Below are positions 11,610 to 12,983 of a stretch of 64,000 bases of DNA, piece after piece (the first letter of the stretch is position 1; each line of letters starts with the position of its first letter). The stretch lies in assembly GCF_000027125.1 (NCBI RefSeq), contig NC_017626.1; one strand, written 5' to 3'. Below the pieces are notes generated by a model. The model saw only the letters and a program-made list of their open reading frames with translations. It had not been told where the DNA came from and did no database searches. The translations under genes and the position numbers were made by a program. The stretch is from Escherichia coli 042 (GTDB taxonomy: Bacteria; Pseudomonadota; Gammaproteobacteria; Enterobacterales; Enterobacteriaceae).

Positions 11610-12983
11610 ATGGATGCGAACAATATGAAAAGAAAAATTATTCCCGTGCTAATCGGTTGTACGCTCTCTTTCTCTGCCCTGGCGGCACAACCTACGGCTG
11701 AGCGCTATGTCGTCAGTTTTCCAGAAGGCACGCACGTGAACTACGCCGGCGCATTTGCCAGTGCATTCCCGAACGGCCTTCCGGTTGGGATAGGTTCTGG
11801 CCTGCTGTTCACCGGTAAACAGGGCGATGCCCTGACATTCGCAACCATTACCGATCGCGGTCCGAACGCGGATTCACCGAAAGAGGGGAAAAACGAAACT
11901 AAAATTTTCGTTACGCCAGATTTCGCGCCGCTGCTGATGACGATTCGTGTACAAAACGGCAAAGCGGAGGCCATCGATCCCCGTCCTCTGCATGACGATA
12001 AAGGCGCGATCAACGGTCTGCCGCTGGCAAGCGACGTGATTGGCTCCACCAATGAAGTGGCCTTCAGCGACACGTTACATAGACTGAAGGGGGATAATCG
12101 CGGGCTGGATACGGAAGGGATCACTCCGGATGGTAAAGGAGGTTACTGGCTGTGCGATGAGTATGGCCCGTTCCTGATTAACATCGACAGTAAAGGGAAA
12201 ATCCTGGCAATCCACGGTCCGCAGGCGGCGGAAGGGGAAAAAGCGATTGCGGGCGGTTTGCCAAATATCCTCAAATGGCGTCAGGCGAACCGCGGCTTTG
12301 AAGGCCTCACCCGTATGCCGGACGGGCGTATTATTGTCGCCGTGCAAAGTACGCTGGATATCGACGCTAAGAGCAAGAAAAAGGCGCTGTTTACGCGTCT
12401 GGTGAGCTTCGATCCGGCAAGCGGAAAAACCGCGATGTACGGTTATCCTATCGACAGCGCGGCCTACAGCAAAAACAGCGACGCTAAAATCGGAGACATC
12501 GTGGCGCTCGATAACCAGCACATCCTGCTGATCGAACAGGGAAGAGATAAAAACAACAGAATGCGTAACCTGATTTACGAGGTCGATCTCAATAAGGCGA
12601 GCGACCTGTCAGGCTTCGACAAGCCGGGTGAGTATCCGGAGTTTGATGATGAGAAAACCCTGTCACAGCGCGGCATTACCCTTGCGCAGAAAACGCAGGT
12701 TGTTGATCTGCGCTCCTTGGGCTGGCAGCAGGAGAAGGCTGAAGGGTTGGCGCTGATCGACAGCAAAACGCTGGCGGTGGCGAACGATAACGACTTTGGC
12801 GTGAAGGTGGCGATGCAACATCCGGTCGAGGGCAAGACATTCAAGGATTATCGGGTGAACGCGGAAGGAAAGCTGACGCTTGACGACAAGCAGGTTGAAA
12901 CGACCCTCAGAGTGAAGCCACTGGAGAAACCGGAGTCTGACAGTGAACTGTGGATTGTGACGCTGCCGGAAGCGTTGAAATAA
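11610..12983 (+). CDS. secreted protein, esterase/phytase-like beta-propeller family (tentative)
   Basis: 457-aa ORF; N-terminal signal peptide MKRKIIPVLIGCTLSFSALAAQP; family assignment from memory only. Confidence 0.55.
   Translation: MDANNMKRKIIPVLIGCTLSFSALAAQPTAERYVVSFPEGTHVNYAGAFASAFPNGLPVGIGSGLLFTGKQGDALTFATITDRGPNADSPKEGKNETKIFVTPDFAPLLMTIRVQNGKAEAIDPRPLHDDKGAINGLPLASDVIGSTNEVAFSDTLHRLKGDNRGLDTEGITPDGKGGYWLCDEYGPFLINIDSKGKILAIHGPQAAEGEKAIAGGLPNILKWRQANRGFEGLTRMPDGRIIVAVQSTLDIDAKSKKKALFTRLVSFDPASGKTAMYGYPIDSAAYSKNSDAKIGDIVALDNQHILLIEQGRDKNNRMRNLIYEVDLNKASDLSGFDKPGEYPEFDDEKTLSQRGITLAQKTQVVDLRSLGWQQEKAEGLALIDSKTLAVANDNDFGVKVAMQHPVEGKTFKDYRVNAEGKLTLDDKQVETTLRVKPLEKPESDSELWIVTLPEALK

Follow-up and report, generated by a model that had tools for sequence, protein, structure and literature searches.

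A mobile phytase-like exported protein of Escherichia coli 042 and its putative Pho-box promoter

The beta-propeller phytases (PF02333; Bacillus PhyC/TS-Phy type) are exported, propeller-fold enzymes rich in acidic residues, which release phosphate in a calcium-dependent manner. This analogy lies behind the name of the 'Phytase-like' family PF13449. One member of the family is encoded in a stretch of 64,000 nucleotides from Escherichia coli 042 (contig NC_017626.1 of assembly GCF_000027125.1). The entire stretch is referred to here as the window, and all coordinates are positions within it. The coding sequence (CDS) occupies 11625..12983 on the plus strand and specifies an exported beta-propeller protein of 452 amino acids (aa) plus stop, which is a full-length, high-scoring member of PF13449 and contains all motifs of the family. 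The protein is proposed to be a PhoB-induced, periplasmic, metal-dependent phosphoesterase for phosphate scavenging, a proposal with about an even chance of being right.

The logic proposed here is that of PhoX and Psip1, which are Pho-regulated, starvation-induced, exported propeller alkaline phosphatases with Ca/Fe centres, holding their metal on acidic residues (PMC11098088). PhoX differs in that it belongs to PF05787 and carries a twin-arginine translocation (Tat) signal, whereas the window protein has neither a PF05787 match nor an RR pair. The eukaryotic soluble calcium-activated nucleotidase SCAN/apyrase (PDB 2H2N) shares 13% identity with the window protein. For PhoAaty of cyanobacteria and phytoplankton, phosphatase activity has been measured; Ca, Mg or Mn activates it and Zn does not (PMC6723241). 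The link to PhoAaty is a lead only: its catalytic part may be PF13449, or the choice-of-anchor-I domain to which PF13449 is often fused may be the real core. A Nodularia protein with the family's annotation, an 'atypical alkaline phosphatase', is induced by log2 3.8-5.5 under phosphorus limitation and is among the most strongly induced genes under this condition (PMC9846622).

YjiK (PDB 3QQZ, from E. coli CFT073) is the closest solved structural neighbour of the window protein. The two proteins share the motifs DxE(T/G)I, (S/C)DE and N-x-GFEGL, but they differ in length (286 aa versus 452 aa) and are only 17% identical. YjiK scores 34.2 bits on PF13449, which is above the threshold of 27.6. 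Together with the shared motifs, this indicates that the YjiK and PF13449 families are homologous. The relationship is distant: in a Pfam search the window protein did not match PF06977, the family of YjiK, and an hhalign comparison with YjiK aligned only 60 columns with a probability of 38%. A yjiK gene is also present in the window itself (61573-62433, minus strand).

The gene has a described counterpart in Shigella flexneri 2a YSH6000, on the Shigella resistance locus (SRL) pathogenicity island (Luck et al. 2001). Its orf34 was first described as similar to a putative periplasmic protein of C. jejuni and has since been re-annotated as a member of this family at 99.78% (PMC6980539). On the island, orf34 precedes the IS66 genes orf35-37, a hypothetical protein, the inovirus Gp2/YfjJ-like orf39 and the Hha gene orf40, with a linkage to fec (PMC6980539); the window has this same order. 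The match to the published table holds for the window and for two further loci, L001 and L016. Judging from that table and the gene order, the window gene appears to be orf34 of the SRL island. The window differs from the island in that no SRL resistance genes are seen in the part examined.

The exported propeller protein

The list of open reading frames (ORFs) of the window contains an uninterrupted frame of 457 codons at 11610-12983 on the plus strand, and the original prediction accordingly described a protein of 457 aa. The frame exists, but the start was placed five codons too early. On identical DNA the RefSeq CDS starts at window position 11625, the homologues are 450-452 aa long with the N-terminus MK(R/I)K, and where the window has its ATG at 11610, orthologues have CTG, AAG or AAA (8 aligned upstream regions). 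A start at 11610 is therefore rejected, and the true start is almost certainly 11625, giving a product of 452 aa. This product is identical (100%) to RefSeq WP_000823243.1 and to the cluster representative P0001. In its mature form it contains a single cysteine.

The first 20 residues (MKRKIIPVLIGCTLSFSALA, then AQPTAE; 11625..11684, plus strand) form a Sec/signal peptidase I (SPase-I) signal peptide, as judged from a comparison of homologue N-termini. It consists of the n-region MKRK, a hydrophobic core and the cleavage motif A-L-A|A. In the N-termini of about 120 homologues the lysine-rich n-region, the hydrophobic core and an (A/S/H)-x-A|A(Q/E) site are kept. The sequence LIGC resembles a lipobox, but its Cys12 is S, T or A in many of these homologues. 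As the cysteine varies while the AxA|A site is conserved, a lipoprotein reading is ruled out, and the protein is best regarded as a Sec/SPase-I substrate, either soluble in the periplasm or secreted. The signal peptide (MKRK..., no RR) lacks a twin-arginine motif. Its residues have low predicted local distance difference test (pLDDT) values in the AlphaFold2 (AF2) model.

The protein matches the PF13449 profile with an E value of 4.6e-43 and 148.6 bits (cut-off 27.6) over positions 4-284 of 284, which is far beyond chance and marks the ORF as real. PF13449 comprises 2065 clusters at 50% identity; in NCBIfam, no model matches the protein. A domain search had been named beforehand as a possible refutation of the original prediction, and its result supports the predicted phytase-like/esterase family, as a label and not as a demonstrated activity. 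The clear signal peptide and secretion that had been predicted likewise hold, given the Sec-type signal conserved among the homologues.

The AF2 model is based on an alignment of 89 sequences with 29-89% identity to the query. It has a mean pLDDT of 96.0 and a predicted template modelling score of 0.92, and is all-beta with 26 strands; confidence is very high throughout, except in the signal peptide. A blade-initial motif, x-(E/D/G)-G-hydrophobic, occurs in five copies. Owing to the 26 strands and the five-fold recurrence of this motif, the model is read as probably a five-bladed propeller with N- and C-terminal extensions. A Foldseek search of the PDB with the model returned only generic propellers, with TM-scores of 0.23-0.37, and a PDB profile search yielded generic propeller repeats and a weak match to YjiK, but nothing else. 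As relatives, YjiK, five-bladed propellers and a Ca-dependent nucleotidase come nearest.

Conservation of at least 90% among the 89 sequences is reached at around 35 positions, with D, E and N dominating. The motifs TDRGPN, DxEG, DEYGP, NRGFEG, IEQG, EKAEG and NDNDF reach this level of conservation and are all present in the window protein. In its N-terminal part they correspond to T-D77-R-G-P-N81, D162-x-E164-G, W175...D-E179-Y-G-P and N222-R-G-F-E226-G. The C-terminal part contributes R258, I-G-D291, E304-Q-G, E339, K371-x-E373-G and N-D388-N-D390-F. Such a ring of carboxylates is typical of metal-dependent propeller hydrolases and suggests that the protein depends on a metal as well. Since a protein exported by Sec would gain any cofactor in the periplasm, Ca2+ or Mg2+ would be likelier than a PhoX-type Fe-Ca centre assembled beforehand.

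The term 'phytase' is a family name only, and a misnomer. Neither the query nor any of the 89 relatives matches the true beta-propeller phytase family PF02333 or the PhoX family PF05787 at E <= 1, and the closest fold is not that of a phytase propeller. Sequence and fold thus show no affinity to true beta-propeller phytases or PhoX. Weak secondary matches of the relatives lead elsewhere in Pfam: 44 of the 89 match PF06977 ('SdiA-regulated', the YjiK family), and there are matches to NHL, strictosidine-synthase-like and SMP-30/gluconolactonase families. In other proteins, PF13449 has as fusion partners a 5'-nucleotidase plus metallophosphoesterase, a ParB-like nuclease, choice-of-anchor-I domains that bear type-9 secretion tails, and S-layer anchors. 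These partners point to extracellular phosphoester, nucleotide or nucleic-acid contexts. One further fusion is with a carbohydrate-binding module.

Upstream region and putative Pho box

The native promoter and 5' leader comprise 155 bp (11470..11624, plus strand), delimited by blastn homology, and have moved together with the gene. The promoter contains a Pho-box-like, putative PhoB site, ATGTCATTTTCCTGACTC, at 11557..11574 on the plus strand, composed of two 7-bp half-sites spaced 11 bp apart. A -10 hexamer, TATGGT (11585..11590, plus strand), follows 10 bp downstream of the box, with no -35 consensus, and its TA is invariant in 8 genera. Each 18-mer in the 320 bp upstream of 8 orthologues was scored against the consensus CTGTCATAWAWCTGTCAY, with a maximum possible score of 16. 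In every one of the 8 genera the top-scoring site is found on the coding strand, at -63 to -76 relative to the ATG, and scores 12.5-16. Cronobacter reaches the full 16 (CTGTCATTAATCTGTCAC), followed by Pantoea and E. hormaechei (14 each), Serratia and Scandinavium (13.5 each), Yersinia (13), and Pluralibacter and E. coli (12.5 each, the latter being the site in the window).

For calibration, the same scoring was applied to known promoters of K-12, giving 14.5 for phoA (at -80), 14 and 14 for phoB (at -81 and -70), and 16, 14 and 13.5 for pstS. The phoB box of K-12 shares a CTGAC half-site with the E. coli and Enterobacter copies of the present gene. In dinucleotide shuffles the maximum averages about 10.5, and in seven genera a fraction of 0-0.004 attains the observed score. 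Sites scoring at least 12.5 have a frequency of 0.17% in random genomic windows of matching size. An alignment of the 8 promoters has a mean column identity of 53%, and upstream of the genes invariance is confined to the columns TCAT in half-site 1, TG.C in half-site 2 and the TA of the -10 hexamer. A homologue with 44% identity has a box scoring 14 at -65. In the IncK2/Z plasmid copies, which have a different upstream junction at -139, the Pho-box promoter is retained.

A generic sigma-70 scan found no -35/-10 pair upstream of the gene. In Pho promoters, the Pho box stands in for the -35 region. The blank scan is therefore what would be expected of an activator-dependent Pho promoter. From these alignments and scores, control of the enterobacterial orthologues by the Pho regulon is well supported, while for the E. 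coli copy it is plausible and weaker than for the orthologues.

Further upstream, at 11476-11515 (plus strand), a direct repeat TTTCCGT-n5-TTTCCGT is followed by the near-palindrome TGTTACAAATAACAACA. These elements are partly conserved in E. hormaechei and could be either the site of a second regulator or junction debris.

Distribution, mobility and proposed function

Of 5426 complete E. coli genomes, 2261 (41.7%) have the gene, and it is full length in 2190 of these 2261. Identity is at least 99% in all records but one, and 66 of the copies lie on plasmids. PLSDB contains 64 plasmids with the gene at >=99% identity, of which 63 are from Escherichia and one is from Salmonella. A contiguous arrangement of fecI, IS1F, a ymgB-like gene, an insertion sequence (IS) remnant and the gene is found in at least 1433 genomes. 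In plasmid pYLMB10a the gene lies between IS1 copies and fec is absent. The same kind of movement between IS1 copies and without fec is seen on IncHI1B and IncK2/Z plasmids, and each time the gene has kept its own promoter.

Chromosomal orthologues with 64-89% identity occur in Enterobacter, Pantoea, Scandinavium, Serratia, Yersinia and Cronobacter. Window positions 11470-12986 are 84% identical at the nucleotide level to a chromosomal locus of E. hormaechei, and the blastn homology stops at both ends. The gene and 155 bp of its own promoter thus make up the mobile unit. E. hormaechei is the best chromosomal match, at only 84%. It is proposed that this 1.5-kb segment of promoter and gene came from an Enterobacter-like donor and was trapped between IS elements beside fec. 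It now spreads with an island of the SRL/KpLE2 type and on plasmids. The original prediction of horizontally acquired accessory cargo is thus borne out by the patchy distribution, the IS flanks, the plasmid copies and the orthologues native to other genera. A ubiquitous core gene had been set as a possible refutation, and at 41.7% of complete E. coli genomes the gene is far from that.

In Enterobacter, Pluralibacter and Scandinavium the orthologue lies near yjiA(cobW)-yjiX-cstA. Within this group, the Scandinavium orthologue (L011 2723-7356) is located between symE and yjiA, the position of the hsd/mcr/mrr 'immigration control region' of E. coli. The Enterobacter and Pluralibacter orthologues (L008-L010) stand beside yjiA-yjiX-cstA, and BrnT/BrnA toxin-antitoxin genes lie close by. 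The native locus, too, is a variable hotspot. In Pantoea, Serratia, Cronobacter and Yersinia the gene stands alone and the neighbourhoods have no genes in common.

The comparison with E. hormaechei gives 122 codons with synonymous and 48 with non-synonymous differences, a sign of longer-term purifying selection. Within E. coli there are 10 synonymous and 9 non-synonymous variants, for a crude ratio of non-synonymous to synonymous rates (dN/dS) of 0.28 based on few events. The five E. coli alleles examined are all intact and carry 9 distinct amino-acid changes, none of which falls in a conserved motif. Truncated alleles are found as well, namely P0002 (429 aa), P0004 (413 aa), P0072 (352 aa), P0081 (408 aa) and H64/H65. 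Their recurrence in public data indicates that some lineages are losing the gene. In one truncated allele, a DUF7828 gene abuts codon ~225.

The proposed function can be set out as a sequence of steps. When phosphate is scarce, phosphorylated PhoB would bind the Pho box at 11557-11574 and recruit RNA polymerase to the -10 element at 11585-11590. The 452-aa precursor would be exported by Sec and cleaved after Ala20. In the periplasm the mature propeller would take up a divalent metal, most probably Ca2+, and hold it by a ring of near-invariant acidic and Asn residues, namely D77/N81, D162/E164, E179, N222/E226, D291, E304, E373 and D388/D390. The enzyme would then hydrolyse organic phosphoesters, possibly nucleotides or phosphodiesters, and the released phosphate would be taken up. 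The phosphoester substrate is suggested by the promoter and by the company the domain keeps in its fusions.

Several observations weigh against this proposal. The E. coli Pho box is the weakest of all (12.5), and 3.4% of the shuffles (0.034) reach the same score; its promoter-proximal half-site, CTGACTC, fits the consensus at 4 of 7 positions only. The site in Enterobacter, Pluralibacter and E. coli can be read as an inverted repeat too (TGTCA-N7-TGACA), a possible target for another regulator, and three of four distant homologues have no clear Pho box. Metal binding and blade number come from motifs and secondary structure rather than from coordinates, and a single-sequence search of the PDB gave no match. 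The closest structural relatives (YjiK, glutaminyl cyclase and GH43/GH130 enzymes) are non-phosphatases. A comparison of orthologue neighbourhoods revealed no conserved operon partners that would support the function independently. In the searchable literature, neither a PF13449 protein with measured activity nor expression data for the gene were found.

The alternative that survives best takes the protein to be an exported propeller unrelated to phosphate, such as a lactonase/esterase, a cyclase, or a glycan-acting or ligand-binding protein, with a Pho-box-like motif that serves another regulator or none. It is unlikely, though it deserves serious weight: the nearest structural relatives include YjiK of the 'SdiA-regulated' family, glutaminyl cyclases, GH43/GH62/GH130 enzymes and lactonases, the weak Pfam matches named above (SdiA-regulated in 44 of 89, NHL, strictosidine-synthase-like, SMP-30/gluconolactonase) lead the same way, and the upstream site is palindromic too in E. 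coli and Enterobacter. What this alternative leaves unaccounted for is the direct-repeat architecture of the Pho box, with its 11-bp periodicity and its -10 hexamer 10 bp downstream, which is conserved in 8 genera and has a perfect score in Cronobacter. In addition, the domain is fused with nucleotidase, phosphoesterase and nuclease modules but not with glycosidases or lactonases, the one carbohydrate-binding partner being the exception, and a family member is induced by phosphorus limitation (PMC9846622).

It is clearly less probable that the gene is a silent or dispensable passenger in E. coli, which hitch-hikes with the selected fec locus and the IS elements so that its frequency merely reflects linkage. 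The gene is boxed in by IS fragments, at least 63% of its carriers keep the identical fecI linkage, and an identity of at least 99% everywhere suggests recent spread over long maintenance. Such a passenger would also fit the existence of truncated alleles, the E. coli Pho box as the weakest of the set, and the near-balanced variants within E. coli (10 versus 9, with the crude dN/dS of 0.28 from few events). Against this, 2190 of the 2261 carrier genomes have a full-length copy, on IncHI1B and IncK2/Z plasmids the gene travels independently of fec, each time with its own promoter, and no substitution in E. coli touches a conserved motif.

A genuine Ca-dependent phytase that releases phosphate from phytate in gut or soil is very improbable: the Pfam and RefSeq name speaks for it, the Pho-box promoter would fit it too, and a genome announcement for the phytate-degrading Pantoea brenneri lists the orthologue at locus L003 as a 'phytase-encoding sequence', yet P. 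brenneri 3.5.2 was isolated as a phytate degrader without having the gene, and the activity was ascribed to a histidine-acid enzyme (PMC12697123).

The proposal of a Pho-regulated phosphoesterase can be extended to the family. PF13449 and YjiK may together represent an unrecognised class of phosphate-starvation-induced, Sec-exported, Ca-dependent five-bladed-propeller phosphoesterases, of which about 40% of E. coli carry a mobile copy, including enterotoxigenic E. coli (ETEC), O104:H4 and Shigella SRL-island lineages. This broader version is tentative and more doubtful than the function proposed for the single protein.

Genomic surroundings and significance

The usual travelling companion of the gene is the ferric-citrate uptake locus fecE-D-C-B-A-R-I (1339..8884, minus strand, from the annotation). 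From there, the order in the window is ykiE, IS1F, a YmgB/AriR-like ORF, IS3 and IS5 fragments, the gene, a DUF6404 fragment and IS66. IS1F (insA/insB; 9176..9873, plus strand) lies between fecI and the cargo segment, and beyond it K-12 goes on with yjhU. The order in K-12 MG1655 is fecI-ykiE-IS1F-yjhU, with nothing that corresponds to the gene at its position. An operonic link to fec is ruled out by the intervening IS1F and several IS fragments and by the plasmid copies without fec.

The upstream boundary is a fragment of an IS3-family transposase (11212..11343, minus strand), annotated by RefSeq on the identical DNA of NZ_CP025753.1 (L001 11913-12044) and also present in L023. On the downstream side, a fragment of a DUF6404 gene (13105..13182, minus strand; RefSeq annotation in L001 and L023) is probably a remnant of the neighbouring gene in the donor genome. 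The downstream boundary is an IS66-family element (13222..15402, minus strand) with tnpC at 13222-14607, tnpB at 14657-15004 and tnpA at 15001-15402; the IS66 calls rest on the ORFs and on the annotation of identical DNA in locus L016. The placement of the gene between IS remnants is therefore as originally predicted, with the IS3-family fragment on one side and the IS66 element on the other. So is the lack of a K-12 counterpart at this position, where MG1655 runs straight from IS1F to yjhU; the very distant paralogue YjiK does exist in K-12.

The window has a complete IS66 element (tnpC 461 aa, tnpB 115 aa), while tnpC and tnpB are annotated as truncated in strain CV839-06 (L001 13923-15832), a strain with 100% identity elsewhere, across the gene and the left flank. 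The right-hand flank is thus polymorphic among carriers. Between IS1F and the IS3/IS5 fragments, a patch of 32-34% GC contains a 97-aa ORF (10599-10892, plus strand) of the YmgB/AriR family of biofilm and acid-resistance regulators. This ORF is further foreign cargo between fecI and the phytase-like gene.

Beyond IS66, zinc-ribbon, inovirus-Gp2/YfjJ-like and Hha genes lead into a CP4-57-like island backbone. Specifically, the stretches 15736-17424 (minus strand) and 23294-26215 (plus strand) hold two zinc-ribbon proteins, the inovirus-Gp2/YfjJ-like protein and an Ag43/Cah autotransporter adhesin of 973 aa. They are followed by DUF932, antirestriction, RadC and YeeU/CbtA toxin-antitoxin genes, and the whole set is a backbone of the CP4-57/SRL island type. 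At 32930-42329 (plus strand) three large genes stand side by side, encoding an SNF2 helicase that best matches PADLOC DrmD (E 5e-198), a Type III methyltransferase of 1039 aa and a Type III restriction enzyme of 1126 aa. These genes are a Type III restriction-modification system plus a DrmD-like SNF2 partner. The 25-kb stretch that contains them is covered to at least 80% in only 77 of the 5426 complete E. coli genomes.

The gene was already known and annotated, so novelty is low; the original call was correct and is no discovery in itself. What is added here is the corrected start, the type of the signal peptide, the recognition of 'phytase' as a misnomer, and the conserved Pho-box promoter that moved with the gene. 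The gene is common, being found in two of five sequenced E. coli, in Shigella SRL islands and on conjugative plasmids, and it belongs to a large family whose functional name misleads. With its conserved Pho-box promoter, the exported protein now comes with a specific, testable hypothesis, namely PhoB-dependent induction combined with phosphoesterase activity. Should this hypothesis fail, the gene would be uncharacterised island cargo. If it is true, a sixth type of bacterial phosphate-scavenging enzyme would be added and thousands of 'phytase' annotations would be corrected. The mobile copy would then give its hosts an extra Pho-regulated route to organic phosphate that is co-mobilised with the iron-citrate system, and the fec island would deliver the capacity for phosphate as well as iron acquisition.

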